Virus record (IMG/VR): IMGVR_UViG_3300037453_000152
Strand: one strand, 5' to 3'
DNA length: 64,000 bases
Source: a virus
Taxonomy: Duplodnaviria; Heunggongvirae; Uroviricota; Caudoviricetes
The translations under genes and the position numbers were made by a program. Shown piece after piece: positions 22,028 to 48,170 of the stretch (position 1 is the stretch's first letter; each line of letters starts with the position of its first letter). Below the pieces are notes generated by a model. It searched no databases. It was not told where the DNA came from and worked only from the letters and a program-made list of their open reading frames with translations.

Positions 22028-22267
22028 ATGGAAAAATAGATTTAGCTAATTAAAAAAGAATTAAAGCCTAATGATATTATAATTGTTAAGTTTGATATAG
22101 AAAAATGGGATATAGAAGAATGTGCTTGCAAATATAATGAAATAAAAGAAAAAATCCGTCATAATCCAGTCATTGGTCTGGTTGATGGTGTTGAATTATA
22201 GTTTGAAGATTGGGAACGTTTATACCAATATGTTATGTCTATTAAACCATAGAGAGGAGAAGATTGA
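22028..22267 (+). CDS. small hypothetical protein (79 codons, 4 in-frame TAG)
   Basis: RBS AGGGAGG then ATG at 22028. Frame open to TGA overlapping the gyrB-like start. Confidence 0.4.
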
Positions 22268-24174
22268 TGGCAGTAGATAAAACTTTATATACTGAGGAAA
22301 GTATTGAGTCGCTATCCCCATTAGAGTTTACTCGCCTGCGGCCGCAGGTATATTGTGGTGATACGACCTATTCTACTCAGCTTTTAGTTGAGATTTTCTC
22401 TAATGCGGTTGATGAATACCGGCTTGGTCACGGTTCAACAATTAACGTTTCTATTTTAGGAACAACTTGTATTGTTGAAGATAACGGCCAGGGATTTATT
22501 CCGAATAGTTTTAGAGACGATGGAAAAACAATTCTTGAAGCAGCATTTAGTGTCCTCAATACTTCTGGTAAATATAGAGAAGATGGAACTTACGAAGGAA
22601 CCTCGCTTGGTTCTTTTGGTATTGGTTCAAAACTACCAACCTTTTTAAGCCATTGGCTTGAAGTTATCACCTACAGAGATGGTGAATATGAGCATATCTG
22701 GTTTAAAGAGGGCGAGTTTGATAAAAGAGATTCTGGAAAGTGGGATAATAATACTACTGGAACACTAGTTCAGTGGCAACCAAGTGAAGAATTCTTTACT
22801 AATCCAGAAGTGAATATCAGTGAACTTAAAACACTATTTAAAACAGTATCTTGTCTTTGCCCTGGTTTAACTATTAAGTTAGATAATAACGGAGAAAAAA
22901 TCACTTATTTATCAACAAATGGTATTAATGACCTTGTAGATGATGCTGTTAAAGGCAAAGAATTAATTGACCATCGTTTTGATTTAAAATATGAGAATGG
23001 TAAGAATAAGATTGATATGGTAATGACCTATACATCAAATTATTCAATGACCATTGTTCCATATGTTAATACTGGTCTTACATCTGTTGGGCCACATATT
23101 ACCCAAATTAAATCTCTTTTAACCAGAGAATTTAATAAGTTTTTCAAAGATAAGAAGTGGTTAAAAGATGATGAAGAAAATCTCTCGGGTGATGACATCC
23201 AAGAGGGATTATATATTGTATTTAATATTACAGCGCCAAATGTCGCCTATGATGCGCAGGTTAAAACGCGTATCACAAAGATTGAAATGACCCCTTATAC
23301 TGCGGCAATCGCAGAGGAAATGCGCATTTGGTTGTTAAATAATGAGAAGGATATTAAAGCAATTGCGGACAAGGCTAAAATGGCTAAAAAGGCTCGCGAA
23401 GCGGCTGCTAAAGCTAGAGATGCTGTTCGTGATAAGCAAGCAAAGAAAGAAAAGGCTCTCAAATTTGATTCTAAATTGGCTGATTGTTTTAGCAAAGATA
23501 GAAAGAAATGTGAGATTTACATAACAGAGGGTGATTCTGCTTCTGGCAACATTAAGAGCGCAAGAGATAATGAGTTTCAGGCAGTTTTGCCTGTTAGAGG
23601 TAAAATCCTGAATGTTCATAAAGCAGATACCTCAAAAATCCAAAAGAACGCAGAAATTATGACTATGATGGATGCTTTTGGATTAGAGATTGACCCGAAA
23701 ACAATGAAAGTTACATATGATAAGAATAAGATTAGATATGGTAAAATTATCATTATGAGTGATGCTGATGTTGATGGTGCTCATATTAAAAATCTATTCT
23801 ATACATTTATTTGGAATTTCTGTCCTCAATTAATTGAAGATGGATTTATCTATGCCGGTGTTCCACCGCTTTATAAAATTACAACTTCAAAGGGTTATAA
23901 ATATTTAAAAAATGATGAAGCTCTTGAAGAATATAGAAAAGAAAACGTTGGAAAGAGTTATCTGGTCAACCGGATGAAGGGGCTTGGAGAGATGGACCCC
24001 GATGACACCGAAGAAACTCTTATTGACCCAGAGCAGAGAATTATCCGCAAAGTTACTATTAGCGATGCTAATGCTGCAGCGAAATTGTTTGATGACTTAA
24101 TGGGAACTGCGGTAACCCCAAGAAAAGAGTATATTAAAAATCATTCAGAGGAGGCAACGTACAATGCCGAATGA
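22267..24174 (+). CDS. gyrB: type IIA topoisomerase ATPase/Toprim subunit (GyrB/ParE-like)
   Basis: GHKL motif EIFSNAVDE and Toprim EGDSA. 636 aa. TAG-free. Confidence 0.85.
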   Translation: MAVDKTLYTEESIESLSPLEFTRLRPQVYCGDTTYSTQLLVEIFSNAVDEYRLGHGSTINVSILGTTCIVEDNGQGFIPNSFRDDGKTILEAAFSVLNTSGKYREDGTYEGTSLGSFGIGSKLPTFLSHWLEVITYRDGEYEHIWFKEGEFDKRDSGKWDNNTTGTLVQWQPSEEFFTNPEVNISELKTLFKTVSCLCPGLTIKLDNNGEKITYLSTNGINDLVDDAVKGKELIDHRFDLKYENGKNKIDMVMTYTSNYSMTIVPYVNTGLTSVGPHITQIKSLLTREFNKFFKDKKWLKDDEENLSGDDIQEGLYIVFNITAPNVAYDAQVKTRITKIEMTPYTAAIAEEMRIWLLNNEKDIKAIADKAKMAKKAREAAAKARDAVRDKQAKKEKALKFDSKLADCFSKDRKKCEIYITEGDSASGNIKSARDNEFQAVLPVRGKILNVHKADTSKIQKNAEIMTMMDAFGLEIDPKTMKVTYDKNKIRYGKIIIMSDADVDGAHIKNLFYTFIWNFCPQLIEDGFIYAGVPPLYKITTSKGYKYLKNDEALEEYRKENVGKSYLVNRMKGLGEMDPDDTEETLIDPEQRIIRKVTISDANAAAKLFDDLMGTAVTPRKEYIKNHSEEATYNAE

Positions 24175-24382
24175 TAGATTAACAACTAGAAACCAATGGG
24201 GAGAAGTGCTTTATTGCGGAAAATTTAAGCACGGAGAATATAAAGGCATTGGCGATATTCCAATAGACCTATCAAATGAAGCTGTAGAAGAAATCATTAC
24301 AAAACTTTATTATTTTGAAGAATATTTTGAAGAATTAACAAACCAATTGGAGGTAATCAATGGCAAACGAGATTCTAACTGA
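24164..24382 (+). CDS. small hypothetical protein between the topoisomerase subunits
   Basis: RBS AGAGGAGG. Intact ORF. Confidence 0.4.
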   Translation: MPNDRLTTRNQWGEVLYCGKFKHGEYKGIGDIPIDLSNEAVEEIITKLYYFEEYFEELTNQLEVINGKRDSN

Positions 24383-26708
24383 CCTTGTTGATGAACTTGG
24401 CACTAATTTTATTGAATATGCGGTTGCTGTTAATACCGACCGCTCAATTCCAGATGCTAAAACTGGTCTAAAGCCAGTAGCAAAGAGAATTATCTATGGA
24501 ACCTATGACCAAGGTTTTACTTCTAAAAAACCGCACGTTAAGTGTGCAAATATTGTTGGTAATGTAATGGCCGATTGGCACCCTCATGGTGATACTTCAA
24601 TCTATGGTGCGCTAACACGTTTGGCGCAAGATTGGGTAATGCGCTATCCTTTAATTGATTTCCATGGTAATAAAGGTAATCGTGATGGAGATGGGCCTGC
24701 GGCTTACCGATATACAGAAGCGCGTTTATCAACTTTAGTTGAAGATGGTATGTTAATAGGAATGAAAAAAGGAGTAGTTGATACTGTTCCTAATTATTCT
24801 GAAACAAAAGATGAACCTATAACTTTACCATCATATTTTCCAAATTTGCTATGCAATCCAAATACTGGTATTGGAATTGCGATGGCGTGTAACTGGGCTC
24901 CACATAACTTAAACGAAGTAGCGCAAGCTATCTTTGATTATATGGATGGTAAGGAGCCAATGCTCCCAGGTCCAGATTTTCCAACAGGTGGATTAGTCAT
25001 TAATAAAGATGATATTCCAAACATTATGCGCACTGGACGTGGAACTGTTAAGATTAGAGGAAAATACAATATTGAGGGAAATAATATTGTATTCTATGAA
25101 ATTCCTTATGGAGTTATCACCGAAAGTCTTATGGAACAAATTGGTAAGGCTTGCGAAGATGGCGATATTGAAGGAATTAAGCACATTCGCAATGAAAGCA
25201 CAAATAAAAAAGGATTTAGACTTGTGCTTGAATGTGAGAAAGATGCTAAATTAAATACTATTATTAATCAATTATTTAAGTCAACAGATTTACAAAGTTC
25301 TTTTTCTTATAATATGGTTGGCTTAATTAGTAAAACTCCTACAGAGTTAAATTTAACAGATTGTTGTAAAATCTATATTGAACATAATACTGATTGTATC
25401 TGTAGAGAAGTTAAATATGATTTAAAGAAAACCGAAGCAAAACTTGAAATTGATAATGGTTTGCTGAAGGCTCTTGAAGATATTGACAATATTATTGCGT
25501 TGATTAAGGAATCGAAGTCTGCAGCAGCCGCTCGTGCGGAGCTGTGCTCCAGATATGATTTTACTGAAGCCCAGGCGCAGGCTATTACAGATATGCGACT
25601 TGGTAAACTCGCAGGATTAGAAAAGATTGAATTGAATGAAGAAATTGAAGGTTTAAAGGAAGAAATTAATCATTATAACGCAATCCTTGAGAACCCCCTT
25701 CAAGAACTTCAAGTAAGGCTTCGCGCAATTGTGAGTAAATATGGCGATGCCAGAAGAACAGAATTAACTCAAATTGCAGAAACAAAAGACGCCGAAGAAA
25801 AGAAAATTGCGGCAATTCCTCCAGAAAAAGTTGTTGTTGTTCTTACGGAAGCTGGCAGTATCAAGCGTATTCCGGCCACATCATTCCGCGCACAGCGCAG
25901 AGCTGGTAAGGGTGTAAAAACACAGGATGAAATTACTTCAATGGTATTAAGAACTAATACAGTTGATAGCCTGATGGTGTTCACCGACCAAGGTAATATG
26001 TATCGTCTTATCGTAGATGATATTCCAGAAGGAACAAACACATCAAAGGGAACTCCTGTGCGCGCACTCGTTTCTATGAACCCTGGAGAGAAACCGGTTT
26101 TGATTTATTCAATCTATCGTGATACAGATGCCAAATATGTTGTTTTCGTATCAAAGCAGGGATACGTCAAGCGCACCGCGCTTGAGGAATATACTGGAGT
26201 TAAGAAAAAGGCTGGTATTAAAGCACTTGGTTTCCATGGAGATGATAGCCTGGCCGCAGTATTCCTCGCTAATGAAGAGCAAATTCTAATTCTTTCAAAA
26301 GATGGATATATTATCAGATGTAAAGGAACAGATTTCCCAACTGCTGGAAGAACAGCAATGGGCAATAAGGGTATTAATTTACGCGATGGTGATGAAGTTA
26401 TTACAGCATTACCAATCAGAAATGAAACAGATACTCTTGCTATGTTCTCAAAAACTGGTATGGGTAAAAAAGTTAAGTTATCTAACTTCCCAATTCAAGC
26501 CAGAAATGGTCGTGGAACTATTGGAATGAAAGATGAAAAACTTGCCGCAGCTTGCCTAGTTTCAGACGGGGATTTGATTCTTGTTTGCGGCGATAAGACT
26601 TCTTTATGTGTCAAAGCAGAAGAACTCCCAGAGGCAAGTTCAAAATATACCATTGGAAACATCGTTATTAAAGGTAATACAAATATTTTAAGTGTTAGTA
26701 AGGTATAA
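24360..26708 (+). CDS. gyrA: type IIA topoisomerase subunit A (GyrA/ParC-like)
   Basis: Catalytic-Tyr region AAYRYTEARL. 782 aa. TAG-free. Confidence 0.85.
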   Translation: MANEILTDLVDELGTNFIEYAVAVNTDRSIPDAKTGLKPVAKRIIYGTYDQGFTSKKPHVKCANIVGNVMADWHPHGDTSIYGALTRLAQDWVMRYPLIDFHGNKGNRDGDGPAAYRYTEARLSTLVEDGMLIGMKKGVVDTVPNYSETKDEPITLPSYFPNLLCNPNTGIGIAMACNWAPHNLNEVAQAIFDYMDGKEPMLPGPDFPTGGLVINKDDIPNIMRTGRGTVKIRGKYNIEGNNIVFYEIPYGVITESLMEQIGKACEDGDIEGIKHIRNESTNKKGFRLVLECEKDAKLNTIINQLFKSTDLQSSFSYNMVGLISKTPTELNLTDCCKIYIEHNTDCICREVKYDLKKTEAKLEIDNGLLKALEDIDNIIALIKESKSAAAARAELCSRYDFTEAQAQAITDMRLGKLAGLEKIELNEEIEGLKEEINHYNAILENPLQELQVRLRAIVSKYGDARRTELTQIAETKDAEEKKIAAIPPEKVVVVLTEAGSIKRIPATSFRAQRRAGKGVKTQDEITSMVLRTNTVDSLMVFTDQGNMYRLIVDDIPEGTNTSKGTPVRALVSMNPGEKPVLIYSIYRDTDAKYVVFVSKQGYVKRTALEEYTGVKKKAGIKALGFHGDDSLAAVFLANEEQILILSKDGYIIRCKGTDFPTAGRTAMGNKGINLRDGDEVITALPIRNETDTLAMFSKTGMGKKVKLSNFPIQARNGRGTIGMKDEKLAAACLVSDGDLILVCGDKTSLCVKAEELPEASSKYTIGNIVIKGNTNILSVSKV

Positions 26709-26710
26709 AC

Positions 26711-26739
26711 TTGAATTATATAAAAAATTTTTATATAAT
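26711..26739 (+). promoter_or_regulatory. sigma-A-type promoter (TTGAAT-N17-TATAAT)
   Basis: -35 at 26711-26716 and -10 at 26734-26739. Confidence 0.45.
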
Positions 26740-26770: not shown

Positions 26771-28702
26771 ATGACGGCTATGGAAGAAATGCGAAAATTA
26801 GTTGATGAATTAAACTATTTAACCGCAAAATATGATGAAGGTCATTCTGAAATCTCTGACAAGCAATGGGATGATATGTATTTTAAACTCCTTGCTTTAG
26901 AAAATGAAACTAATTTTCGCTATGACGATTCGCCAACTCAACAAATTTCATATGAAGTAGTAACTTCTCTTCCGAAAATTCAACATAACCATAAAATGTT
27001 GTCTTTAGATAAGACAAAGAGCGTGGAAGACGTTCAAAGTTTTATTGGGAATCATGACTATGTTGCTATGGCAAAGATGGATGGTTTAACTTGTTCTTTG
27101 CGTTATTTAAATGGAAAACTAGTTACCGCAGAAACAAGAGGTAATGGCATTATTGGTGAAGATATTACTCATAATGCTAAAGTAATTCCATCAATACCTA
27201 ATGAAGTTGCTTATAAGTCTGAATTAATTGTTGATGGCGAAATAGTGTGCGTAGCACACGATTTTCAAACCTTTGCTAAAGATTTCAAGAATCCAAGAAA
27301 TTTTGCGGCGGGCTCTATTAGACTTTTAGATGCTAATGAGTGCGCCCGCCGCAAATTGACCTTTATCGCTTGGGATGTAGTTAAAGGGTTTGAAGAAGAA
27401 AATTCATTCGTTAAAAAACTTTCTTTATTAAGTCAATATAATTTTTCTATTGTTCCTTGGACGCAAGAAAATATTACTTATGCCATTAAGGATATTCAAG
27501 ACTTATGTTTTGAACAAGGCTATCCAATAGATGGATTAGTATTCAAATTTGACGATATTGACTACGGAAAATCTTTAGGAGAAACTTCCCACCACTTTAA
27601 AAATGCTATTGCTTACAAGTTCTATGATGATGAATATGAGACAACCTTAAAAGATATTGAGTGGTCAATGGGAAGAACCGGTGTATTAACTCCAATAGCA
27701 ATCTATGATGATATTGAAATAGATGGAGCAATTTGTAATAGAGCAAGTTTACATAATTTAAATATTAGAGAAGAATTACTTGGCAATTTTCCTTATAAAG
27801 GAGAAAAAATCTGGATTTATAAGGCTAATATGATAATCCCTCAAATTAGTAAAGCAGAAAAAAGAATTTCTTTTGAAGATTTTCATTTTGATATTCCAAA
27901 AGTCTGTCCTATTTGCGGCGAGCCAACAGAAATAATTACTTCTGACACTAATACTAACGAATTATACTGCTCAAATCCTAATTGCGAAGGCAAATTAATT
28001 AATCAAATTAACCATTTTCTTGGTAAAAAAGGTCTTGACGTTAAGGGAATTTCGGAGGCAACTCTTGAAAAACTGATTAGTTGGGGCTGGGTAAATAGTA
28101 TATTAGATATGTATAATCTTGAGCAATATAAGCAAGAGTGGATTTTAAAGCCGGGTTTTGGTGTTAAATCAGTAGAAAATAATCTAAATGCTATTGCCGC
28201 AAGTAAAGAGTGTCAATTAGATAAATTTATTTGCGCCATTGGAATTCCTCTTATTGGCACATCAATGTCTAAAACTCTCGCAAAAACATTTAAAACTTGG
28301 GAAAGTTTTAGAGACGCAGTAAATTCTCATTTTGATTTTACACTTTTGGAAGACTTCGGCTGGACAACAGAAGATAGTATTTTAAAATTTGACTATTCAC
28401 AGGCTGATGAATTGGCTAAAATATTAAATATTACCTATGAAGAACCAGAAGAGAGTAATAATCAAAGTTTGAAAGATATGAAGATTGCTATTACAGGAAC
28501 TTTACATCATTTTAAGAACCGCGCAGAATTGGAACAAGCAATTGCGGCCGCCGGTGGAAAGAGTGTTTCATCGGTGACAAAAAACACGAGTATCTTAATT
28601 AATAATGATGCTCAATCCAATTCTTCAAAGAATTTGACGGCAAAAAAGTTAAATATCCCAATTCTTACCGAAGAAGAATTTTTAAAAAAATATCTTGACT
28701 AA
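26771..28702 (+). CDS. ligA: NAD-dependent DNA ligase
   Basis: KMDGL adenylation motif, Cys4 zinc finger and C-terminal BRCT. 643 aa. TAG-free. Confidence 0.85.
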   Translation: MTAMEEMRKLVDELNYLTAKYDEGHSEISDKQWDDMYFKLLALENETNFRYDDSPTQQISYEVVTSLPKIQHNHKMLSLDKTKSVEDVQSFIGNHDYVAMAKMDGLTCSLRYLNGKLVTAETRGNGIIGEDITHNAKVIPSIPNEVAYKSELIVDGEIVCVAHDFQTFAKDFKNPRNFAAGSIRLLDANECARRKLTFIAWDVVKGFEEENSFVKKLSLLSQYNFSIVPWTQENITYAIKDIQDLCFEQGYPIDGLVFKFDDIDYGKSLGETSHHFKNAIAYKFYDDEYETTLKDIEWSMGRTGVLTPIAIYDDIEIDGAICNRASLHNLNIREELLGNFPYKGEKIWIYKANMIIPQISKAEKRISFEDFHFDIPKVCPICGEPTEIITSDTNTNELYCSNPNCEGKLINQINHFLGKKGLDVKGISEATLEKLISWGWVNSILDMYNLEQYKQEWILKPGFGVKSVENNLNAIAASKECQLDKFICAIGIPLIGTSMSKTLAKTFKTWESFRDAVNSHFDFTLLEDFGWTTEDSILKFDYSQADELAKILNITYEEPEESNNQSLKDMKIAITGTLHHFKNRAELEQAIAAAGGKSVSSVTKNTSILINNDAQSNSSKNLTAKKLNIPILTEEEFLKKYLD

Positions 28703-28756: not shown

Positions 28757-28948
28757 ATGAAAGCAAAAGAATTAAGGAAGTTGGCCCAGCAAATGGCTAA
28801 CTTAGAGTTGATTATCGAACGTAGCGACGATACTGAGGAAGTGCGTAAGGCTCAAAACGAGATTATTCACTTATCAGGAAAACTTGACCCAGAAGATATG
28901 TTTGAAATTGACGAATTAATCCAAAATATTTTAGAGAAAAATACTTGA
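28757..28948 (+). CDS. hypothetical protein
   Basis: Intact ORF with its own promoter-like motif upstream. Confidence 0.45.
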   Translation: MKAKELRKLAQQMANLELIIERSDDTEEVRKAQNEIIHLSGKLDPEDMFEIDELIQNILEKNT

Positions 28949-28973
28949 CAAAGAAAAAATTTTTTATTATAAT
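28945..28973 (+). promoter_or_regulatory. sigma-A consensus promoter (TTGACA-N17-TATAAT)
   Basis: -35 at 28945-28950 and -10 at 28968-28973. Confidence 0.55.
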
Positions 28974-29316: not shown

Positions 29317-29350
29317 GGGGTGGTTTTTTTACCACCCCATTTTATTTATT
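29317..29350 (+). terminator. rho-independent terminator
   Basis: GGGGTGGT / ACCACCCC hairpin plus a T-run. Confidence 0.7.
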
Positions 29351-30360
29351 TGACTATTTTGTATATTTTTCTTGGCTTGATATTGGGTAGTGCAGGAGTT
29401 TATTTAATATTAAGACCAAGATTAAAACAATTTATTTAGTTAGATGAAAAAACCAAAAATTAGAATGAAGAATTAGAACAAAAAAATAAAATATTATCAT
29501 CTGAAAATATTGCTTTATTAGATGAATAGAAAGTTAAACTTAATTAGTTGGCTGGACTTAAAGAATCTTGTTCCGCAGCAGAGTCCAAAAGAGATGAATT
29601 AAATAGGGCTTTACAGAACTTAAAGGAAACTCAAGAAAGGGCTGCAAATGATCTATATAGTTAGGCTTTAAATATCGCTGAAAATAGTTATCAAAAGGAA
29701 GTTGATAGAATTAGCGATGATTTGTTCCAAAAGAGAGAAGAAGCCAAACAGATTTATTTAGACCTTTTGGAAGAGGGCGCAACTGAATACCAAGAAGCAA
29801 TTGAGTCAAAATAGAAAGAGTTTTCATATTGGAACGAACGAATAATTGCGCTTCAGCAAGATGTTTAGACTGCATTAGATGCGGCTTAGCGCAAGTTAGA
29901 AATGGAACAAAAGCAAGATTATTATCGGGTATGTCTGTCAATAGATGATGTAAATGAGGTAAAACGCTTGCGCGAAGTGCTTCCATATTTAAGAGATAAA
30001 ACCCCATTAAACAAAGTTATTTATAAAGTTTATTATGAGCGTCCTCTCACCGACATGATTGGCAGAGTTATTGGCCCAGGCGTTCATACTGGCATTTATA
30101 AAATAACAAATATTGAAAATCAAATGTGTTATGTCGGCCAAGCCGCAAATATCGCAGACCGCTGGAAGCAGCACGTCAAGCGAGGAGTCGGCGCAGAAGA
30201 CTGGACACAAAACAAACTTTACCCAGCAATGTATTCTCTTGGAGTTGAGAATTTTACATTTGAAGTTATAGAAGAGTGTGACCGTTCTCAACTAAATGAC
30301 CGAGAAGATTACTGGCAAAATTATTTTCACGCAAAAGATTTTGGATATAGTATTAAGTGA
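29350..30360 (+). CDS. TM-helix plus coiled-coil protein fused in frame to a C-terminal GIY-YIG nuclease domain (9 in-frame TAG). Start uncertain. ATG 29902 is an alternative internal start
   Basis: Frame has no TAA/TGA from 29308 to TGA 30358. N-terminus LTILYIFLGLILGSAGVYLIL. C-terminus GIYKITN...YVGQAANIADRWKQH...ENFTFEVIEEC. Confidence 0.45.
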
Positions 30361-31287: not shown

Positions 31288-31316
31288 TTGATTTTTAAAT
31301 AAAATTTTGATATAAT
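31288..31316 (+). promoter_or_regulatory. sigma-A-type promoter (TTGATT-N17-TATAAT)
   Basis: -35 at 31288-31293 and -10 at 31311-31316. Confidence 0.45.
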
Positions 31317-31694: not shown

Positions 31695-31707
31695 AGGAGA
31701 AAAAATA

Positions 31708-32667: not shown

Positions 32668-32687
32668 TAATATGAGGAAGATGCGAT

Positions 32688-37135: not shown

Positions 37136-38920
37136 ATGGAATATCAACTTTTAACACCTAGCATCCCGGCAATTGAGGATTTTACGCCGGTTGAACAGGT
37201 GTTTATGACTCGGGGTATGCACCCGAAAGACATTAATCACTATCTTAACACTACGATAGAGGACATTCTTGATCCAGCACTATTGGATAATATTGATGAT
37301 GGGGCAAAAATGTTAATCAAGCATCTGGCTCTTGGAGATAAAATCTTCGTATAGGTAGATCCTGATGTAGATGGATTTACTGCCGCAGCCACATTATTAA
37401 ATTATCTTAATTGTCTATTCCCAGGCACAGTGCAATAGAATATCATCTATCGTGTCCAAGAAGGCAAATAGCACGGTATTATCTTGGATACAATCCCAGC
37501 AGATGCAAAACTAGTAATTATACCAGATGCTGGCAGCAATCAATATGACGAACACAAAGCGCTCTACGAGCGCGGAGTTGATGTTCTCGTATTGGACCAT
37601 CACGAGGCAGAACAAGTATCGGAATATGCTTGTGTGATTAACAATCAATTAAGCAATTATCCAAACAAATCATTGTCTGGCGTAGGCGTGGTTTATAAAT
37701 TTTGTCAATATTTAGACAAATTATTAAACAAATCCTACGCAGATGATTTACTAGATCTTGTGGCTATTGGAATTATATCAGATATGATGGACATTAAGAA
37801 CTTTGAAACAAAGGAAATAATTGATCTTGGATTAACACATTTTAAGAATGAATTTTTAAAAGCCTTCGCGGAATCGTAGAAATATTATTTAAATGATGGA
37901 GTAACACCGTTTAAAGTATCTTTCTACATTGCCCCTTACATCAATGCGACTGTTCGTGTTGGTAGTTTAGAGGAAAAAATACTCTTGTTTGAAGCAATGC
38001 TAGACTTTAAAGCCCTTGAATATATACCATCGACCAAGAGAGGGTGTAAAGGAAAAGGAATCTTTGAAACAAGAGTAGATCAGGCCTGTAGAAATTGCAA
38101 AAATATCAAAAATAGACAAGCCAAAGCAAGGGATACAAGCCTAAAAATGATTGAGGACATCATTATAAGGGATAATTTAATAGTGAACCCTGTTTTAATC
38201 ATTTAGTTAGATGATCCAGTAGACGAGAATATTACTGGACTAATTGCTAATGAAATTATGGACGCATATTAGCGACCTGTTTTGTTATTAAATAGGTATA
38301 TTGAAGTTGATGAAGAAACAGGTGAAATCACAAAATTAGCGTGGCGCGGTTCTGGAAGAAATTCCCAGTATTCAAGACTTTAGAATTTGCGTGAATTTTT
38401 TGCAAATTGTGGTTATGTGGAATACGCACAAGGTCACGCTTCTGCATTTGGTATCTCTATTTTAGAAGAGAAATTAGATGCATTTAAAAAATATGTTTAT
38501 AATCAATTAAAGGACTTTGATTTTTCCAAATGTTATTATGTTGATTTTATTTGGAGCACCGCTGATGCGGAGCAAAACAAAGATACCATTTTAAAATTAG
38601 GTGAGTTAAATAGCATCTGGGGCCAAGGCCTCGCGCGTCCGCGCGTAGCATTGGAACACATTGTCGTCACCGCAGAAAATCTGCGCTTAATGGGTGAAGA
38701 TAAAAACAAACCCACCTTAAAAATATCCTTATCAAATGACGTGTCCTTAATTAAATTTAGGTCGAGTCATGAAGAGTATGAAAAATTATACTCTGAAAAA
38801 GGTTGTGTAATTATTGATATCGTTGGCACTTGTAATAATAATGTGTGGAACGGTATAATTAGTCCTCAAATTGAAATTGAAGATTATGAAATTGTAAGTA
38901 AGTCTGCCTATTACTTTTAA
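37136..38920 (+). CDS. recJ: RecJ-like DHH-family ssDNA exonuclease (7 in-frame TAG)
   Basis: DPDVDG and LVLDHHE motifs. Four track ORFs (37136, 37484, 37985, 38387) share one frame with no TAA/TGA. Confidence 0.65.
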
Positions 38921-38967: not shown

Positions 38968-39711
38968 ATGAAAAAGAAAATATTAGTAGTGCTTTTAACA
39001 GTTCTTATTATTGTTGGATGCACAAACATGGCTTATGCAAGTTCTCCATTTGTTGAGACAGAGGGATTATCAATTGACGAGTTCTTTGAGGGGAACCATG
39101 CTGAATTAATTGCGCGACAGGCTGCGGCGCACGAAAGAGCCGAGGCGGCTCGCGCAATGGGTTATCCAGAAGATTGTTGTATAATCAAATGCGCTCAACG
39201 TGAATGGCAAATGGCTCAAAAAGAAAGAGAATTATTAAATACCGAAGACAACTATAACACTTGGGCTATGAGATTCGCAGAATATCCATACGCAACATAT
39301 GTATGGTTATACTTAACGAGAACACTTGAATATAACGATTATGTTGCGGCTGGTATAATTGGTAATATGATGGCTGAAGTCGGTGGTGGCACATTATCAT
39401 TACAATATTGGCTTTATGGAGGCGGACGCAGTTATTATGGTATTTGTCAGTGGGCAAAAATTTATTCCACTTTACCAGATGGCTCTGATTTAAGAGTTCA
39501 ATTAGAGTATTTAAAAGATACAATTGAATACGAATTAAACACATTTGGCTTTGTTTTTGCTTATGGATATAAATATAAGCAATTTTTAGAATTGACAAAT
39601 ACAAATGATACGGCTTTAATGTTCGCTAAATGCTATGAACGCTGCGCTGCTTTTACCTATTATTCAAGACAGGTATATGCGGCAAAGGCTTATGATTACT
39701 TTGTAGATTAA
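38968..39711 (+). CDS. secreted lipoprotein (lipobox IVGC), function unknown
   Basis: Signal peptide MKKKILVVLLTVLIIVGC. Confidence 0.55.
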   Translation: MKKKILVVLLTVLIIVGCTNMAYASSPFVETEGLSIDEFFEGNHAELIARQAAAHERAEAARAMGYPEDCCIIKCAQREWQMAQKERELLNTEDNYNTWAMRFAEYPYATYVWLYLTRTLEYNDYVAAGIIGNMMAEVGGGTLSLQYWLYGGGRSYYGICQWAKIYSTLPDGSDLRVQLEYLKDTIEYELNTFGFVFAYGYKYKQFLELTNTNDTALMFAKCYERCAAFTYYSRQVYAAKAYDYFVD

Positions 39712-39717: not shown

Positions 39718-39752
39718 GGGCTATGGGTTACACCATAGCCCCTTTTTTATTT
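39718..39752 (+). terminator. rho-independent terminator
   Basis: GGGCTATGG / CCATAGCCC hairpin plus a T-run. Confidence 0.7.
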
Positions 39753-39765: not shown

Positions 39766-39939
39766 ATGATAGTTCAAATTATAGATAAAGATACAGGAAA
39801 AATTATTAGTGAATGGGAAGCAGATGAAAGAGATTTTAAACTGAGCGGGCCGGTGACGTTCAGCGCAACCGACAGCACAAACCAAAAATTGGTTTTCAAA
39901 ATTCTAGACCAAAAACTTGACACTGAGGAAAAAATATAA
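39766..39939 (+). CDS. small hypothetical protein
   Basis: RBS GGGGGTTAAAGA. 57 aa. Confidence 0.35.
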   Translation: MIVQIIDKDTGKIISEWEADERDFKLSGPVTFSATDSTNQKLVFKILDQKLDTEEKI

Positions 39940-39945
39940 TATAAT
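39916..39945 (+). promoter_or_regulatory. sigma-A promoter (TTGACA-N18-TATAAT)
   Basis: -35 at 39916-39921 and -10 at 39940-39945. Confidence 0.45.
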
Positions 39946-39978: not shown

Positions 39979-40317
39979 ATGACAAGAGAATATGCAACTA
40001 AGTGGATAAAAGAACAATGTGATTATGACGCAGCTTTTAAATACAATGTGATGCTATTAGATCAGTATGATTTTAGCGAGTTTTTAACAGATGGTAGAAG
40101 TTTATGGAATCTGCGCGATGCTATTGAAGAGAAATATGACAAAGAGTTTTGGGATAAATATCACATGTACGTCTTTGATAATCTCGACGGCGAAGATACT
40201 TGTCAATATTTCGCAAGCAGATATAATGTATGGTTCCAAGAGTATACAGATTGGGTGGTGAGACATGATAATGGAGCTTACGAAAAAACAAAGCGATGGA
40301 TTAAAGATAGCCCTTGA
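39979..40317 (+). CDS. hypothetical protein
   Basis: Intact ORF. Confidence 0.5.
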   Translation: MTREYATKWIKEQCDYDAAFKYNVMLLDQYDFSEFLTDGRSLWNLRDAIEEKYDKEFWDKYHMYVFDNLDGEDTCQYFASRYNVWFQEYTDWVVRHDNGAYEKTKRWIKDSP

Positions 40318-41476
40318 ACGTTATCGTAATGGCGAGAAATATACAGTTATATCGGGTTACGCAGGAACAGGTAAGTCAACGCTGATAAAATTTATCATAT
40401 CTGCTATGGGATTATATTTAGATTAGGTTCGTTATATAGCATATACTGGAAAAGCAGCAAATGTATTAAAAAATAAGGGTTGCCCTGATGCTACAACAGC
40501 ACATAAATTAATCTATCACGCAAAACTTATGCCCAACGGCAAGTATTTCTTTACTCCAAAAAGACCATCGGAGATGGAGAGAGAAATCAAAGTCGTGGTA
40601 GTAGACGAAGTTTCAATGCTTCCAAAAGATATGTGGAATTTGTTATGTTCTTATCACTTCTATATCCTCGCCTGCGGCGATCCAGAGTAGTTACCTCCCG
40701 TCCCCGATGGTTCTGGCGAAGACCCAAACAATCATGTTCTTGATAACCCGCATATCTTCCTTGACGAAATTATGCGCCAAGCGCAAGAGAGCGAAATCAT
40801 TCGCTTATCAATGCACGTGCGCGAAGGTAAGCCAGTAGCGACGTTCCCAGCGTAGAATGAAGAAGTTATGTTAATCAACCGAAATGATTTAAATACATCT
40901 ATGCTAACATGGGCTGACTAGATTTTGTGCGCAACGAACAGAACAAAGAATAATTTAAATTAGCAATTGCGGCAAGCCTACCAGTTTGCGGCCGAGCCTC
41001 AACTGGGAGACAAGCTAATCAATCTCCATAATGAATGGGACATATGCTCTAATTTGGAGAATCCATTAACCAATGGCATTATTGGTAAGGTCATATAGAT
41101 GGAGAAGCAAGACTGGAAGTATCCCTGGTAGATACGCGGTGAGTAGTTCTCTGTTCCTGTGTTGGTAGCAACAATATCAGGCGACGAAGAAGGAGAGCAG
41201 TTTGATTTTCTACCTTTTGATTATAACGAAATACTCACAGGATAGCCAAGTCTAACAGGTAGAGAAGAGTATACCATTAGAAAAAAATACGAAATGGCAG
41301 TGCCGCTGCACGGCAACTTTGGATACGCTATTACGGTGTGGAAAGCGTAGGGTAGCGAGTGGGATAAAGTTCTACTCTTCCAAGAATCTGGCTGGCCGCG
41401 TCTGCCAGACGAACGCCGCAGATATATGTATACTGGTATAACTCGCGCAGTTGAAAAGTTAGTAGTAGTGGTTTGA
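40265..41476 (+). CDS. Dda/RecD-like SF1B DNA helicase (403 aa, 10 in-frame TAG)
   Basis: Walker A GYAGTGKST, VVVDEVSM, and motif III CGDPE(TAG)LPPV with TAG at 40688-40690. No TAA/TGA until 41474. Confidence 0.7.
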
Positions 41477-41501
41477 TTTATATTAAAAATTATGATATAA
41501 T
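41473..41501 (+). promoter_or_regulatory. sigma-A-type promoter (TTGATT-N17-TATAAT)
   Basis: -35 at 41473-41478 and -10 at 41496-41501. Confidence 0.45.
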
Positions 41502-41530
41502 ATAAGTATGATAAAGATGGAGGTTTGATA

Positions 41531-44500
41531 ATGCAAACTTATTTTGGTGTCCATAATCATACAATTTATAGTAATATAAGATTAATTGACGCTATTAATA
41601 AGCCAGAAGATTTAATTGACAAAGCGATTGAATTAGGTTTATCTGGAATAGCAATTACAGACCATGAATGCCTATCGGCGCATATAGAAGCAGAAAAGTA
41701 TATGAATAAAATCCAAGAGAAGAATCCAACTTTCAAATTGGCTCTTGGAAATGAAATATATCTAGTAAATGATAGAATTAATGGTCAAAAATATTATCAC
41801 TTTATTCTAATAGCAAAAGATGCTATTGGTCATCGCGCTTTGCGCGAACTTAGCTCACGCGCATGGATGAATTCTTACACCGATAGAAAATTGGAGAGGG
41901 TGCCAACATTAAAAGATGAATTAACAGAAATTGTAAATAAATTTCCTAATCATCTAATTGCAACAAGCGCATGTATTGGCGGCGAACTTTCTTCAAATGT
42001 TTTGTTATATCTAGCATCTAAAAAGATTAATGATATGACAAACGCAACATTATATTATAAAAAAATAACTGATTTTCTTGAATATTGTTTAAACTTATTC
42101 AAAGAAGATTTCTATATAGAGTGTGCGCCCGGCACTTCAAGCGAGCAAATAGCAGTTAATCAAACGTTGCGCAAGATTGCCGCATATTACAATATTAAAA
42201 TGGTAGTTGGCACTGACGCACACTATTTAACTAAAAATGAACGTTCAGTTCATAAAGCCTATCTCAATTCTAAAGAAGGAGATAGAGAGGTAGATTCATT
42301 TTATGAATTTACTTATCTTATGGATTATGACGAAGTAACAACTTTATTGGCAAAAACTTTTGATGGAGATATTGACTTTGCGCAAAAGGTTGTGAATGAC
42401 ACAATGGATATTTATGATAAAGTAGAAAGATATTCATTGTTTCATAAGCAAGATATTCCAAGAGTTGATGTTAAAGATTATCCTAAAAGTGATTGGGCAG
42501 GCAATTATCCAAATCTTCATAGATTATTTGCATCTGATGATATTCAAGATAGATATTGGGTAAATGAATGCTTTAAAACCCTTGAACAAAAAGGATTATT
42601 GCATGACGACAGATATATTGATGAACTCGAAGAAGAAGCAAGAGTTAAAAGTATTATTAGTGAGAAACTCGAAACTAATATGTTTCGTTATCCAAATACT
42701 CTTCAACATTATATTGACCTTATCTGGGAGTGCGGCTCGATGGTCGGCGCAGGAAGAGGTTCTTCGTGCGCAGCATTAAATCATTATCTTATGGGTATCA
42801 CACAACTTGACCCAATCAAATGGGAGTTACCATTTTTTAGATATCTTAATGATGAGAGAATTGAACTCGGTGATATTGATATTGACCTTTGTCCTTCTAA
42901 GATTGGAATAATTCTTCAAAAGATTGCGGCCGAGCGCAGTCAAATGTTTAATATTGAAGTTCCAGAATGGGCAAAGAAATTGTTTGGATGCACGCGCATT
43001 GCTACGTTTGGAACAGAAGGCACAAAGTCCGCTATCCTAACCGCGTGCCGCGGTTATCGCAGTGAAGACTATCCCGACGGTATTGATGTTGACCAAGCCC
43101 AATATATGGCATCACTTATTCCACAGGAGCGTGGTTTCCTATGGCCTATCAAAGATGTTATTGAGGGTAATGATGAATTAAATAGACGACCTGTAACAAG
43201 TTTCATACGAGAAATTAATAACTTCCCAGGTCTATTAGATATTATTGTAGGTATTGAAGGTATTTGCAATAAGCGCAGCTCTCACGCTTCTGGAATTATA
43301 TTATTTGATGGAGACCCATTTGAACATTGCGCATTTATGAAAACTCCAAAAGGTGAGATTATCACTCAATGGGATTTACATAATGTAGAGTATATGGGCA
43401 ATACAAAGTATGACTTCCTCGTAACCGAAGTTCAGGATAAGATTGTTCAAACTATTCAGTTCCTTCAAGAGGATGGAGAAATTGAAAAGGATTTAAGTCT
43501 GCGCGAGATATACAATAAATATCTTCATCCGGAAGTTCTGCCAATTGAAACAGATACTAAAATGTGGGACGCTCTTGGAGAAGTATCGGTTATTAATACT
43601 TTCCAGTTTGATAGTATGGATGGCGCCAAAGCCGCAAAGAAATTAAAGCCAAGAACAATTCTTGAAATGGCTGACGCCAATGGTCTAATTCGTTTGATGG
43701 GCGAAGAAGGTCAAGAGCGACCCATTGATAAATATTATAGATACAAAAACAACATAAACCTTTGGTATCAAGAGATGGATAGATATGGTTTAACTAAAGA
43801 AGAACAAGAATATTTGGAACCATATTTTAAATCATCTTATGGTGTTCCACCAAGCCAAGAGCAACTTATGAAAATGTTAATGGATGAACACATCTGCGGC
43901 TTTAGCCTGAGCGAAGCAAACAACGCGCGTAAAATTGTCGGTAAAAAGCAAATGTCAAAAATCCCTGCTCTAAGAGAGCAGGTTCTAAAGAGAGCGACGA
44001 GCTCCGCCTTGGGACAATATGTTTGGAAGTTTGGCGCCGGGCCGCAGATGGGTTATTCATTCTCACTTATTCATGCACTCGCATATTCATTCGTGGGCGC
44101 GCAAACCCTCTACCTTGGCACCCATTGGGACCCAATCTACTGGGATACTGCGTGTCTCGTTGTAAACAGCGGTTCTCTTGAAGAAGATGTTGTTGATGAA
44201 GATGGCGAAGTGCTGTATGATGAAGAAGAAGATACTGAAATTGAAAAGAAAAAGAAAGCTACAAGCACTGACTATGGTAAAGTAGCAAAGGCTTTAAATG
44301 AAATTATTAATGCTGGTATTAATGTCAGCCTGGTTGATATTAATGCTTCTGGATTTGGCTTTAAGCCAGACGTTAAAAATCATCGTATCCTTTTTGGAAT
44401 GAAAGCATTGTTAAATGTTAACGATGATTTGGTAAATAAAATCATAGAAAATCGTCCATATTATTCTATTAAAGATTTCTATAATCGCATCAAGCCAACA

Positions 44501-45484
44501 AAACAGTCAATGGTTTCGCTTATCAAGGCTGGCGCATTTGATGAGATGATGGAACGCAAACTTGCGATGGCGTGGTATATTTGGGAAACTTGCGATAAGA
44601 AAACAAGATTAACCTTACAAAATTTCTCAACGCTGGTAAAGCAGGATATGGTTCCGTTGGATACAGAAGAGAGACAATTAGCATTTAAGGTTTATGAATT
44701 TAATCGTTATCTAAAAGCCATGTGTAAGAACAAAGAAAGTTCTGTTTGGTATTTCTTAGACAATAGAGCAATTGATTTCCTTGCAAAGATTGATAAATTA
44801 AATCTTATAAAAGAAAATGAGTTTTTGGAAATTAAAGTATGGGATAAAGTTTATCAAACTTATATGGACGTTTTTAGAGAATGGCTCCGCGCAGACGGTG
44901 AGAAAGTGTTGGAAGATTTAAATGCGCGAATATTCAAAGCAGATTGGGATAAATATGCGGGTGCAGGCAATCTCTCCGCGTGGGAAATGGAAGTTCTCTG
45001 TTTCTACAGTCATCCGCACGAGCTGGCAGACGTAAATAAAGAAAGATATGGATTAAGTAATTTCTTTGAAATTCCAGAAGAGCCAGTTGTTGAGAGAACA
45101 TTTTATAAGAGTAATCACGCAATTAATATATTTAAACTATTCCGCATTAGCGGAACTTGTATCGCAAAGAATAAGACAAAGAGTATTGTTACAATTCTTA
45201 CAACAGATGGTGTTGTAAATGTGAAATTTAGAAAAGAATATTTTGCGTTGTTTGACAAGCGTATCTCCGAGCGAGGAGAAGATGGAGTTAAACACGTCGT
45301 TGAAAAAAGTTGGTTTGATAGAGGCAATATGATAATGGTTCAGGGTGTGCGCTCGGGCGGTGATTTTATCACAAAGAAGTATTCTTCTTCTGCTGGGCAT
45401 CAATTATATCATATTACAAATATAGAAAACGATGGTAGTCTTGTTCTTCAAACCGAACGATATAAAGGAGAAGAGGGCGAATAA
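41531..45484 (+). CDS. dnaE: DNA polymerase III alpha subunit (DnaE-type, N-terminal PHP domain)
   Basis: PHP motif GVHNHTIYS. 1317 aa. TAG-free. Confidence 0.8.
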   Translation: MQTYFGVHNHTIYSNIRLIDAINKPEDLIDKAIELGLSGIAITDHECLSAHIEAEKYMNKIQEKNPTFKLALGNEIYLVNDRINGQKYYHFILIAKDAIGHRALRELSSRAWMNSYTDRKLERVPTLKDELTEIVNKFPNHLIATSACIGGELSSNVLLYLASKKINDMTNATLYYKKITDFLEYCLNLFKEDFYIECAPGTSSEQIAVNQTLRKIAAYYNIKMVVGTDAHYLTKNERSVHKAYLNSKEGDREVDSFYEFTYLMDYDEVTTLLAKTFDGDIDFAQKVVNDTMDIYDKVERYSLFHKQDIPRVDVKDYPKSDWAGNYPNLHRLFASDDIQDRYWVNECFKTLEQKGLLHDDRYIDELEEEARVKSIISEKLETNMFRYPNTLQHYIDLIWECGSMVGAGRGSSCAALNHYLMGITQLDPIKWELPFFRYLNDERIELGDIDIDLCPSKIGIILQKIAAERSQMFNIEVPEWAKKLFGCTRIATFGTEGTKSAILTACRGYRSEDYPDGIDVDQAQYMASLIPQERGFLWPIKDVIEGNDELNRRPVTSFIREINNFPGLLDIIVGIEGICNKRSSHASGIILFDGDPFEHCAFMKTPKGEIITQWDLHNVEYMGNTKYDFLVTEVQDKIVQTIQFLQEDGEIEKDLSLREIYNKYLHPEVLPIETDTKMWDALGEVSVINTFQFDSMDGAKAAKKLKPRTILEMADANGLIRLMGEEGQERPIDKYYRYKNNINLWYQEMDRYGLTKEEQEYLEPYFKSSYGVPPSQEQLMKMLMDEHICGFSLSEANNARKIVGKKQMSKIPALREQVLKRATSSALGQYVWKFGAGPQMGYSFSLIHALAYSFVGAQTLYLGTHWDPIYWDTACLVVNSGSLEEDVVDEDGEVLYDEEEDTEIEKKKKATSTDYGKVAKALNEIINAGINVSLVDINASGFGFKPDVKNHRILFGMKALLNVNDDLVNKIIENRPYYSIKDFYNRIKPTKQSMVSLIKAGAFDEMMERKLAMAWYIWETCDKKTRLTLQNFSTLVKQDMVPLDTEERQLAFKVYEFNRYLKAMCKNKESSVWYFLDNRAIDFLAKIDKLNLIKENEFLEIKVWDKVYQTYMDVFREWLRADGEKVLEDLNARIFKADWDKYAGAGNLSAWEMEVLCFYSHPHELADVNKERYGLSNFFEIPEEPVVERTFYKSNHAINIFKLFRISGTCIAKNKTKSIVTILTTDGVVNVKFRKEYFALFDKRISERGEDGVKHVVEKSWFDRGNMIMVQGVRSGGDFITKKYSSSAGHQLYHITNIENDGSLVLQTERYKGEEGE

Positions 45485-45855
45485 TGGAAAAAGAAATTTG
45501 TAAATACTATAATGTTAGAGAATGTGGAGCATTTTGCTATGGACAGAAAGATGCTCCAATAACCCAGTGCGAAGGGGATATCCTAAAATGTGATATCCCC
45601 GACTACAAGGCTAAGACGCTTAAAGAGAAAACAAAAGATAATGTTAATCATCCTTCTCACTATAACGCAGGAGGTATTGAATGCATTGAAGCACTTGCGG
45701 CCGCCACAAGCGGCCTTGAGGGGATTGAATCATTCTGCACTGCCAATGCTATTAAATATCTATGGCGTTGGAAGTATAAGAATGGACAAGAGGATTTGGA
45801 AAAGGCTATATGGTATATTAATTACCTCATTGCGCACCTGGGCAAGAGTAATTAA
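45484..45855 (+). CDS. DUF3310-like phage protein
   Basis: HPSHYNAGGIE motif. Confidence 0.5.
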   Translation: MEKEICKYYNVRECGAFCYGQKDAPITQCEGDILKCDIPDYKAKTLKEKTKDNVNHPSHYNAGGIECIEALAAATSGLEGIESFCTANAIKYLWRWKYKNGQEDLEKAIWYINYLIAHLGKSN

Positions 45856-45929
45856 TTTTATAGTTACAAAAACTAAATATAGTAGAAATCACAATATTTC
45901 TTACCATATTTAGTTTTGGAGGATTGAGA

Positions 45930-48170
45930 ATGAATAAAGTTATTAAACGAGATGGAACACTTGTTCCATTTGATGAACAAAAGATTATAAATGCAATTAA
46001 TAAAGCTTTTCTTGAAGTTGACGGCAAACTTTATGAAGATGATACTGCTAAAGATATTGCCAATGAAATTGCAACGATGATTCAAGATAACCCAGTAACC
46101 GTTGAGACTATTCAAGATTGGGTAGAAAATTATTTAATGCGCTCGGAGCGCAGTGATGTGGCGCGCGCATACATTCGCTATCGCTATAAGAAAGAAGTTG
46201 CTCGCAACTTCTAGCATGATTTTATTGATGCTATCCGCGAGAAACTCGGCGCAGAAGATGTTCAAAATCAAAATGCAAATATTGATGAATATTCATTCGG
46301 CGGCCGCACAGGAGAAGCATCTGGTGTAATGACAAAGAAACTGGCTCTTGATTACCTCTTATCTGAGAACTCAAGAAAAAATCACGAAGGTAACATGATT
46401 TATATTCATGACCTTGATAATTATTATGTTGGTAGTCATAACTGTTTAAGTATCCCATTTGATGACCTCCTGGCTAAAGGATTTAATACTCGTCAAACAG
46501 ACGTGCGGCCGGCCGGCTCAGTTAATACTGCGATGCAATTAGTCGCTGTAATTTTCCAGTTGCAATCTCTGCAACAGTTTGGCGGCGTCAGCGCCACGCA
46601 CCTAGACTGGACCATGGTCCCCTATGTACGCAAGAGTTTTTGGAAGCATTATAAAGATGGATTAAAATATATAGAAAATGTAGAAGATGCCGAAGAATTA
46701 AAAATTGTTCCAAATGGTCCAGAAGCACTTTCTATTACAGAAAGTGGATATAATACATATCCTAAAGCATATTCATATGCTATGGATATGACAGAGAAAG
46801 AAATCCATCAAGCAGTTGAAGGTCTTTATCACAATTTAAATACTCTTCAATCCAGAAGTGGCAACCAATTGCCATTTACTTCAATTAATTATGGCACTTG
46901 CACCCTTACAGAAGGAAGAATGGTTACCAAAGCTCTTCTGGAAGTTAGTATTGAAGGACTTGGCAAACTGCATAAAACATCAATTTTCCCATGTGGAATT
47001 TTCCAATGTATGAAAGGAATTAATCGTGAACCAGGAGATCCTAATTATGACCTTTACCAGTTAGCCCTACAAAGCACAGCTAAACGACTGTATCCAAATT
47101 ACGCTAATGTAGACTGGTCTGGAAACGCCGGATACGACATTAATGACCCTCGCACCTATTTCTCGACTATGGGCTGCAGAACAGCGAATGGGTTTGATAT
47201 TAATGGATTAGGGCAATTAAAAGATGGACGTGGAAATATTTGCCCAGTTACTATTATTCTTCCAACAATTGCTATGATGGCGAAGGAAGATATTGCACAA
47301 CTGTATGCCGAAATGACTGATATTGAGACATATGATGTTGTTCAAAGATTTATGCTTCTGTTAGACCAAAAGATTCACGAAGCAAAGGATATGTTAATTG
47401 AGCGTTTTGAATGGATTTGCTCACAGTCTCCTGCTTCGGCAAAGTTTATGTATGAGAATGGTCTTATGGCCGGCTACAAGCCAGAAGAGGGAATTCGTAG
47501 TGCGCTAAAGCATGGCACTGTTGTTATTGGTCAATTGGGATTAGCTGAGTGCTTACAAATTCTTATCGGCTGCGACCATACCGAGCCAAGAGGAATGGAG
47601 CTAGCAAAACAAATTGAGCAGTTATTTAAAGATAGATGCGCCGAATTTAAGCAGGAATATAAATTAAACTTTGGTGTTTATTATACACCTGCGGAAAACC
47701 TTTGCTATACTGCGTTAAAGAAATTTAGAGCAGCATATGGAATTATTCCAAAAGTTTCTGATAAAGACTTCTTCACTAACAGTATGCATGTTCCAGTCTG
47801 GCGCAATATGAGTCCATTTGATAAAATTGATATTGAAAGTCAATTAACAGGATATTCAAGTGCCGGTTGTATTACTTATGTAGAGCTTGATGCCTCTGCG
47901 GTTCATAATACAAAAGCATTAGAGCAGATTGTTAATTATGCTATGGATAAAGATATTCCATATTTTGCTATTAATGTTCCTTCTGACACCTGCCTTGATT
48001 GTGGATACCAGGGAGAAATTAATGAAGCTTGTCCTATGTGCGGCGGGCGCAATATCCAACAACTTCGTCGCGTAACAGGATACCTTACAGGAAATTACAC
48101 AACCGCATTTAATCTTGGTAAGCAGGATGAAGTGCATCATAGAGTAAAGCATGTGGGGGTTATGGAATGA
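45930..48170 (+). CDS. nrdD: anaerobic ribonucleoside-triphosphate reductase with N-terminal ATP-cone (1 in-frame TAG at the domain junction)
   Basis: ATP-cone VIKRDGTLVPFD. Zn ribbon CLDCGY...CPMCG. Glycyl-radical region RRVTGYL...NLGKQDEVHHRVKH. ORFs 45924..46214 and 46329..48170 are in the same frame. Confidence 0.8.

Follow-up and report, generated by a model that had tools for sequence, protein, structure and literature searches.

Selective avoidance of the reassigned TAG codon in replication genes of an uncultured large phage

The idea that recoded phages use a switch of genetic code to time the expression of their genes has already been published (Borges et al., preprint 10.1101/2021.08.26.457843; Yutin et al., 2021, PMC7886860). 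In the gut and rumen phages described by Borges et al. (10.1101/2021.08.26.457843), TAG encodes glutamine, replication genes seldom use the recoded codon, which is common in genes for structure, lysis and homing endonucleases, close relatives carry suppressor tRNAs, the code changes over short distances, and a timing switch was proposed; in all these respects the phage DNA considered here is alike. An intron endonuclease is preferentially recoded in those phages, which is echoed here by nucleases that admit the codon. Their "Agate" clade (154 +/- 27 kb; cattle and pig samples) combines codes 11, 4 and 15 among close relatives. Here we describe a stretch of 64,000 nucleotides, hereafter the window, from the IMG/VR virus record IMGVR_UViG_3300037453_000152 (Caudoviricetes), in which genes that avoid in-frame TAG and genes that are dense in it stand side by side within one replication module.

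Decoding and distribution of TAG in the window

With about 36% GC the window is AT-rich, and open reading frames (ORFs) of at least 100 amino acids cover 0.61 of it under code 11, 0.65 if TGA is taken as sense and 0.91 if TAG is. Indeed, ORFs delimited by TAA and TGA only, which are used for all TAG counts below, tile it tightly. In the primase, RecJ, Dda, GIY-YIG and nrdD genes, the alignment columns that hold TAG in the window contain mainly CAA, CAG or TAG in orthologues; codons 142, 219 and 362 of the Dda-like helicase are TAG at positions where glutamine is invariant in the orthologue alignment, and invariant glutamine positions of the primase are likewise occupied by TAG in the window. 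Over 58 TAG columns, glutamine obtains the top BLOSUM62 score (97.8, followed by 45.9 for E and 30.3 for K). Since the TAG columns match glutamine in orthologues and Q scores highest, the genome decodes TAG as glutamine (code 15). In what follows, CAA, CAG and TAG together are referred to as Gln-like codons.

Across 73 genes there are 144 TAG among 20,102 codons, amounting to 20% of the Gln-like codons. A first-pass annotation of this DNA had claimed that TAG is very unevenly spread, and this holds: over-dispersion among genes is pronounced per codon (p=8e-17) and per Gln-like codon (p=3e-14), so that the uniform rate after correction for glutamine content, which the same annotation had named as grounds for abandoning the claim, is not seen. 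The probability of finding no TAG in the 149 Gln-like codons of the eight long genes it had listed as TAG-free is 3e-15, and a recount of these genes with TAA/TGA-bounded ORFs agrees, without any missed in-frame TAG. A two-class binomial model is favoured over a single rate (likelihood-ratio test, 77.7), with about 45% of genes at 3% TAG per Gln-like codon and the rest at 36%. The avoiding class comprises gyrase A and B, NAD ligase, polymerase III alpha, DnaB, Sak4, a winged-helix regulator and, in this genome, NrdD; in the permissive class, about a third or more of the Gln-like codons are TAG (36% by the mixture model, 39% when genes are pooled).

In the TAG-free genes, frames +1 and +2 hold 13.9 and 12.3 TAG per 1000 codons, respectively, vs 0.2 in frame. 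Since off-frame TAG is plentiful in these genes, the depletion is reading-frame specific and concerns translation, not base composition. A trivial explanation would invoke chance, low glutamine content or an overall scarcity of TAG as a trinucleotide, for instance through restriction-site avoidance. The TAG-free genes do have somewhat fewer Gln-like codons (3.1% vs 3.7%), and off frame their TAG density is about half that of TAG-rich genes; yet the dispersion per Gln-like codon, the contrast of 0.2 in frame with 12-14 off frame in the same genes, and the repetition of the pattern in independent relatives make this explanation vanishingly improbable.

In turn, the pooled TAG-rich genes use CAA:CAG:TAG at 154:31:117, a TAG share of 0.39. 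At comparable synonymous sites, A/G and T/C ratios are about 3.5 (AAA/AAG 3.65, TTG/CTG 3.48), from which we infer that a simple mutation-only model predicts a TAG share near 0.4. Because the observed value lies so near the predicted one, the TAG-dense genes are roughly at neutral expectation and it is on the TAG-free genes that selection acts. Within genes, a bias of TAG toward the 5′ end is not significant in the window (p=0.086); the same bias looks strong in relatives, where it stems partly from over-extended ORF starts and partly from non-independent orthologues, and no claim is made of it.

The TAG-free genes had been described as an island. They are not contiguous, and rather form a mosaic of at least four blocks, parted by a small TAG-rich ORF at 22028, a GIY-YIG gene, the primase together with RecJ, and Dda. 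Functional labels rest on Pfam or PHROG profile matches, which confirmed all the labels given previously, and the genes listed next are all on the plus strand. The small ORF (22028-22267; 79 codons) has a strong ribosome-binding site and carries TAG at codons 4, 6, 58 and 75; its stop overlaps the start of gyrB (TGATG). It is the first gene past a near-consensus promoter, under the standard code it would yield a tripeptide only, and both orthologues found in relatives are devoid of TAG. The gyrB-like gene (22264-24174; 636 codons, TAG at 0/13 Gln-like codons; Pfam DNA_gyraseB/Toprim) has a probable ATG at 22267 and its own GAGGAG ribosome-binding site. The gyrA-like gene (24360-26708; 782 codons, 0/17; Pfam DNA_topoisoIV, E=1e-124) and ligA, encoding an NAD-dependent DNA ligase (26771-28702; 643 codons, 0/19; Pfam DNA_ligase_aden/OB/BRCT), complete this first TAG-free run. 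The transmembrane/coiled-coil/GIY-YIG nuclease gene (29320-30360; Pfam GIY-YIG at 258-337, with PHROG matches to homing endonuclease families) has 8 TAG, at codons 40-190, and not 9 as counted before.

A second run comprises a small MarR-like winged-helix regulator (31350-31694; 114 codons, 0/3; Pfam HTH_24/MarR), the Sak4-like AAA_24 ATPase (32688-33665; 325 codons, 0/10; Pfam AAA_24, E=2e-34) and the DnaB-like helicase (34230-35759; 509 codons, 0/18; Pfam DnaB/DnaB_C). The DNA primase (35944-37050; 368 codons, 9/20; phrog_47, E=7e-34) begins directly past the preceding stop codon, 13 + 171 nt downstream of DnaB. In its ORF, the final sense codon is TAG, followed directly by TAA (37045-37050), and the ORF at 49114-49416 likewise ends in TAG-TGA (49411-49416); such ends may be leftovers of old TAG stops with back-up stops. 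The RecJ-like DHH exonuclease (37136-38920; 594 codons, 7 TAG; Pfam DHH and RecJ_OB) and the lineage-specific Dda-like SF1 helicase (40265-41476; 403 codons, 10/20; Pfam AAA_30/UvrD_C_2) are as TAG-rich as first reported, and so is the primase. They are followed by dnaE, encoding polymerase III alpha (41525-45484; 1319 codons, 0/40; Pfam PHP/DNA_pol3_alpha), and by nrdD, for the anaerobic ribonucleotide reductase (45924-48170; 1/34). As already noted in the first reading, the sole TAG of nrdD, codon 97 (nt 46212), falls in the linker between the ATP-cone (5-91) and NRDD (117-743) domains of Pfam.

Two further TAG-free genes that the first-pass annotation had listed lie outside the coordinates it gave: those for an RNA ligase (12001-13269, plus strand; 422 codons, 1 CAA and 11 CAG, third-position GC content (GC3) 0.42; Pfam RNA_ligase) and for an SPFH/Band 7 protein (13761-14708, plus strand; 315 codons, CAG-preferring; Pfam Band_7). 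If TAG is read as sense, an antisense ORF of 450 codons (12046-13398, minus strand) stands opposite the RNA ligase gene and another of 349 codons (31660-32709, minus strand) opposite the gene at 31708-32667; both are probably spurious.

The plus-strand block of replication and nucleotide-metabolism genes (9701-50675) is flanked by two minus-strand blocks, one of fibre-like genes (174-9375) and a second structural one (50694-63392). TAG occupies 36/80 Gln-like codons in the tail-fibre block and 5/12 in the amidase gene. Further to the right, the divergent intergenic region between the genes at 53072-53467 (minus) and 53693-54187 (plus) contains three exact copies (53486-53594; two on the minus and one on the plus strand) of a 19-nt motif, TTCCGGRAAWTTTTGGTMA, which encloses the palindrome TTCCGGAA. 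No other copy exists in the window (0.26 expected), and the motif might serve as a binding site for a regulator or as part of a late promoter.

Orthologues in relatives and the origin of the TAG-free genes

Searches of IMG/VR with DnaB, DnaE and GyrB gave 66 loci, on contigs mostly of 100-200 kb, and the source of the window is accordingly a large phage; one of the loci (L027) is a piece of dnaE identical to that of the window. Queries with left-end structural and tail-fibre proteins brought up no relatives in IMG/VR, a 24-kb query had no megablast match among the phage records of GenBank, and an Rfam search of the window returned no known RNA family. By coding density, 44 loci are TAG-sense, 10 TGA-sense and 13 standard-looking, and since the three kinds are mixed, the code changes within the clade.

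In the TAG-sense relatives, codons were counted only over the region aligned to the window protein. TAG is absent from the Gln-like codons of gyrA (0/245; 14 relatives), ligA (0/201; 13 relatives) and the winged-helix regulator (0/53; TAG-free in 15/15 relatives), and is rare in gyrB (1/121), dnaE (7/570), the gene at 31708 (4/130), Dda (11/288), DnaB (13/273) and Sak4 (12/205). It abounds in GIY-YIG (199/528; 21 relatives), RecJ (111/371), RuvC (32/105), PIN-PhoH (26/100) and nrdG (18/72), with the primase (42/265) and nrdD (39/288) in between, and the heterogeneity among 36 orthogroups is extreme (chi2=617, p=1e-107). The glutamine columns in which TAG arose number 62/125 in RecJ and 88/152 in GIY-YIG, 0/85 in gyrA and 0/105 in ligA. 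Moreover, the core genes of the relatives contain 871 CAA and 431 CAG, every CAG being a single transition away from TAG.

The TGA-sense relatives offer a second reassignment: there, TGA/(TGA+TGG) is 1/146 in the core set vs 31/81 elsewhere (Fisher p=4e-15), with 8/16 in the GIY-YIG gene, so that the spared gene set is identical under TAG and TGA recoding. As judged from these alignments, the pattern shows that in-frame TAG is removed from the core genes by purifying selection. As a separate observation, dnaE matches span 1-1.1 kb of extra DNA in two relatives (L028, 2254-7337; L034, 10001-15011) and gyrB matches 0.4-0.8 kb in three (L063, L064 and L066), which suggests inteins, introns or inserted endonuclease genes.

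One of the two explanations put forward in the first-pass annotation was that the TAG-free genes came recently from standard-code hosts or phages, in which case they would be too young to have gained TAG. What speaks for it is found in an accessory block at 9701-14708 (metallophosphatase, ORF 10650, RNA ligase and SPFH genes), which is CAG-preferring (30 CAG, 13 CAA), has a GC3 of 0.42 vs 0.28-0.31 elsewhere, and whose genes occur in few of the gyrB-centred loci; even there, homologues of the SPFH protein at 68-98% identity are partly located on contigs of 100-185 kb, and a JGI contig of 130,832 bp encodes the identical protein. For the core genes, the comparison of GC3, which had been proposed as a check, gives no contrast (0.284 in TAG-free core genes vs 0.310 in TAG-rich replication genes). 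Their orthologues, at 41-89% amino-acid identity, stand in syntenic positions and lack TAG, the glutamine codons of the core genes have turned over between CAA and CAG in relatives without passing into TAG, and TGA-recoded relatives spare the same genes. Furthermore, the 120 top-ranking homologues of GyrA are metagenome proteins about 780 aa long; many come from phage-sized contigs, no bacterial species name is attached to any of them, and the nearest DnaE of isolated phages (Enterococcus and SPbeta-group Bacillus phages) is only 37-39% identical. As a general account recent acquisition is thus highly improbable; these comparisons lead us to reject it for gyrB, gyrA, ligA, dnaE, DnaB and Sak4, and it could apply only to the block at 9701-14708. 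A recent host origin as the reason why the SPFH gene lacks TAG was considered separately, and is weakened by its many homologues, some of them on phage-sized contigs. The accessory block also holds a TAG-rich GIY-YIG homing-type endonuclease gene (11256-12029; 6 TAG), and the RNA ligase gene (12001-13269), together with those for an AAA_33 kinase-like protein (15184-15750) and a metallophosphoesterase (15729-16319), resembles a set for tRNA or RNA repair.

Conserved avoidance of the core coexists with genes that change class. Dda has TAG at 10/20 Gln-like codons here vs 0-1 TAG in orthologues at 77-80% identity, and in those same relatives the adjacent dnaE has zero or nearly zero. Among close relatives the primase ranges from 0/16 to 9/20, with 9 TAG here and 0 to 8 in relatives, and nrdD, which has 1 TAG here, carries 3-9 in the majority of relatives. 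From locus to locus, the TAG share of these switchable genes rises with that of permissive genes (Spearman 0.50, p=0.005). The class membership of individual replication genes thus shifts quickly. The nucleases of the module (RecJ, RuvC, GIY-YIG, PIN-PhoH and RNase H) all belong to the permissive class, an observation made post hoc.

Suppressor tRNA, promoters and the timing of translation

No tRNA genes were found within the window. Look-ups of identical proteins, made to reach sequence past its ends, gave contigs of 0.9, 6.6 and 17 kb, and an exact 50-mer from the left end was without a match in the metagenome collection. The partial gene at its left end is DenV-like, with homologues in 44 loci, and served as the point from which to walk to tRNA(CUA) genes in relatives, tRNA-Gln being too variable for a pattern across the whole collection. 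In the closest TAG-sense relatives (L077, L078, L080, L083 and L084), one or two tRNA(CUA) genes stand 5.4-8.5 kb upstream of the DenV-like homologue, and TGA-sense relatives have tRNA(UCA) there instead; by analogy, the window's own suppressor tRNA probably sits just past the left edge. Both L077 and L078 have a full-consensus promoter some 90-110 nt before a tRNA(CUA) gene, which suggests that the host polymerase would make the suppressor from early on and that the switch would consist in its gradual accumulation, in line with the wording of the first-pass annotation.

Several further features accompany these tRNA genes. Directly upstream of the relatives' tRNA(CUA) stands a TAG-free, CAG-rich Thg1-like gene (tRNA-His guanylyltransferase family, PF04446, E=3e-24; L078 351-1187, L083 3101-3937, L080 2197-2994), which may be part of a module for tRNA maturation or code change. 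Some TGA-recoded relatives hold tRNA(UCA) and tRNA(CUA) together in one large array (L087 10326-12220; L091/L092 10691-12504), with 17-25 predicted tRNA genes per locus. ARAGORN also gives tmRNA-like predictions in the tRNA arrays of some relatives (L060 4164-4518, L087 14526-14944, L098 3001-3409), which may be false positives.

Within the window, five promoter-like sites score at least 11/12; all of these strong sites are on the plus strand of the replication module, at distances of 24-64 nt ahead of start codons. Among the sites noted on this strand, a sigma-70/sigma-A-like promoter (21976-22004; TTGACT, 17 nt, TG-TATAAT) precedes the small ORF and gyrB; perfect-consensus sites lie at 28945-28973, upstream of 29037, and at 39917-39945, upstream of 39979; and sites with an extended -10 element are found at 31288-31316, upstream of the cluster of regulator, Sak4 and DnaB, and at 41473-41501, directly upstream of dnaE. 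The motif TGWTATAATA, an extended -10 element, has 8 copies in the window vs 1.2 expected, and 6 of these copies are located just 5′ of genes on the plus strand, among them dnaE and the clusters that contain gyrB and the regulator, Sak4 and DnaB. Terminator-like hairpins were noted at two plus-strand places. The first, a strong one (29317-29338; GGGGTGG...CCACCCC with a T-run), overlaps the GTG at which the GIY-YIG gene is predicted to start, so that read-through, or another start or promoter, may be needed past it; the second (39718-39741) follows the gene at 38968-39711. TAG-rich and TAG-free genes share tightly packed same-strand clusters, and therefore any temporal separation between them would have to be translational.

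We favour, with a probability of roughly 0.6, the reading that the avoiding genes are translated before the phage tRNA(CUA) accumulates. Core replisome and topology proteins would be produced at a stage when TAG still acts as a stop in the infected cell; as tRNA(CUA) builds up, it would outcompete the host release factor 1, and only later would TAG-containing genes yield full-length protein, with a dependence on the suppressor level that would be steeper the more TAGs a gene carries. The TAG-rich genes would then be explained by gating rather than by mere tolerance. The expectation that the recoded codon be low in replication genes and high in structural and lysis genes agrees with the counts, with exceptions. 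We know of no direct experimental test of the code-switch timing hypothesis, for which the pairs DnaB/primase, small ORF/gyrB and Dda/dnaE would be natural reporters.

Several points weigh against this scheme. Primase, RecJ and Dda are TAG-rich although they are replication genes, and with 9 TAG in the primase gene replication would have to wait for the switch unless the host primase serves; therefore the logic of keeping the polymerase TAG-free for the sake of timing is weakened. Conversely, some structural-looking genes are low in TAG (1714-4122, 2/33; 51995-52816, 1/13, and 6/128 in relatives). "Early" is here taken from promoter-like consensus sites, which also stand before TAG-rich genes (22028, 11256 and Dda), and the counts in orthologues are not phylogenetically independent. 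The timing explanation of the first-pass annotation fits everything found, under a strain that comes from the TAG-rich primase.

A related and more tentative possibility is that the number of TAGs sets a graded, gene-by-gene translational delay or dose within early operons transcribed by the host polymerase. The genes held back would be those of RecJ, RuvC, two GIY-YIG proteins, PIN-PhoH, RNase H and lysis and, here, primase and Dda, and genes would join or leave the gated set over short distances, as Dda (0-1 to 10 TAG at about 80% identity) and the primase (0 to 9) seem to do.

Selection against TAG could also be independent of timing. If TAG were never fully read, truncated products or a low yield would harm oligomeric machines above all, so that gyrase (A2B2), the DnaB hexamer, Sak4 filaments and Pol III would avoid it during the whole infection, and RecJ, Dda, the primase and homing-type nucleases, being monomeric or needed at low dose, would tolerate it. 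The avoiding set does consist mostly of oligomeric or long enzymes, the TAG-rich primase is easier to explain in this way than by timing, and a few structural-looking genes avoid TAG too. Nevertheless, there are 6-11 TAG in each of the tail-fibre-like genes, which are 615-765 codons long, even though fibres are as a rule oligomers whose assembly could suffer from truncated subunits; the regulator of only 114 codons is TAG-free throughout the relatives, so that neither length nor dose is a predictor; and Dda and the primase switch class among close relatives with an unchanged fold. We consider leaky suppression rather unlikely as the main cause of the pattern.

Comparison with described recoded phages

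Code-switch timing is thus plausible and already published, and the pattern seen here constitutes a further example of the known behaviour of recoded phages. The resemblance to the Agate clade is one of size range (contigs of 100-200 kb) and of code mix among the relatives only. The closest isolates by DnaE are the SPbeta-group Bacillus phages and Enterococcus phages of about 140 kb, with a YorL-type DnaE (37-39% identity over 99% of the protein); they are alike in genome size class and infect Bacillota, and are very distant. Together with the sigma-A-type promoters, these nearest isolates suggest a host among the Bacillota.

The crAss-like phages with partial reassignment (Yutin et al., 2021, PMC7886860) differ in that they belong to an unrelated virus group, the present DNA having a DnaE-type polymerase, a gyrase, sigma-A-type promoters and probably a Bacillota host. 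Block-wise dual coding as modelled by Mgcod (10.1101/2022.06.29.495998) is also different, for what is found here is a fine single-gene mosaic and not two large blocks. In contrast to the phages of Borges et al. (10.1101/2021.08.26.457843), the distinction is drawn gene by gene within one co-directional replication module; the core that avoids TAG and the set that permits it are both fixed, and other genes move from one class to the other.

Altogether, the window provides a clean and statistically strong example, from an uncultured lineage that probably infects Bacillota, of how part of the genome of recoded phages stays readable in the code of the host. Its additions are incremental, namely the presence of TAG-rich genes inside the same packed clusters as TAG-free ones, and the speed with which some of them change class. 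The comparison with relatives also takes a step past the published block-level description, since it indicates that the spared set is kept by selection and does not reflect recent acquisition.

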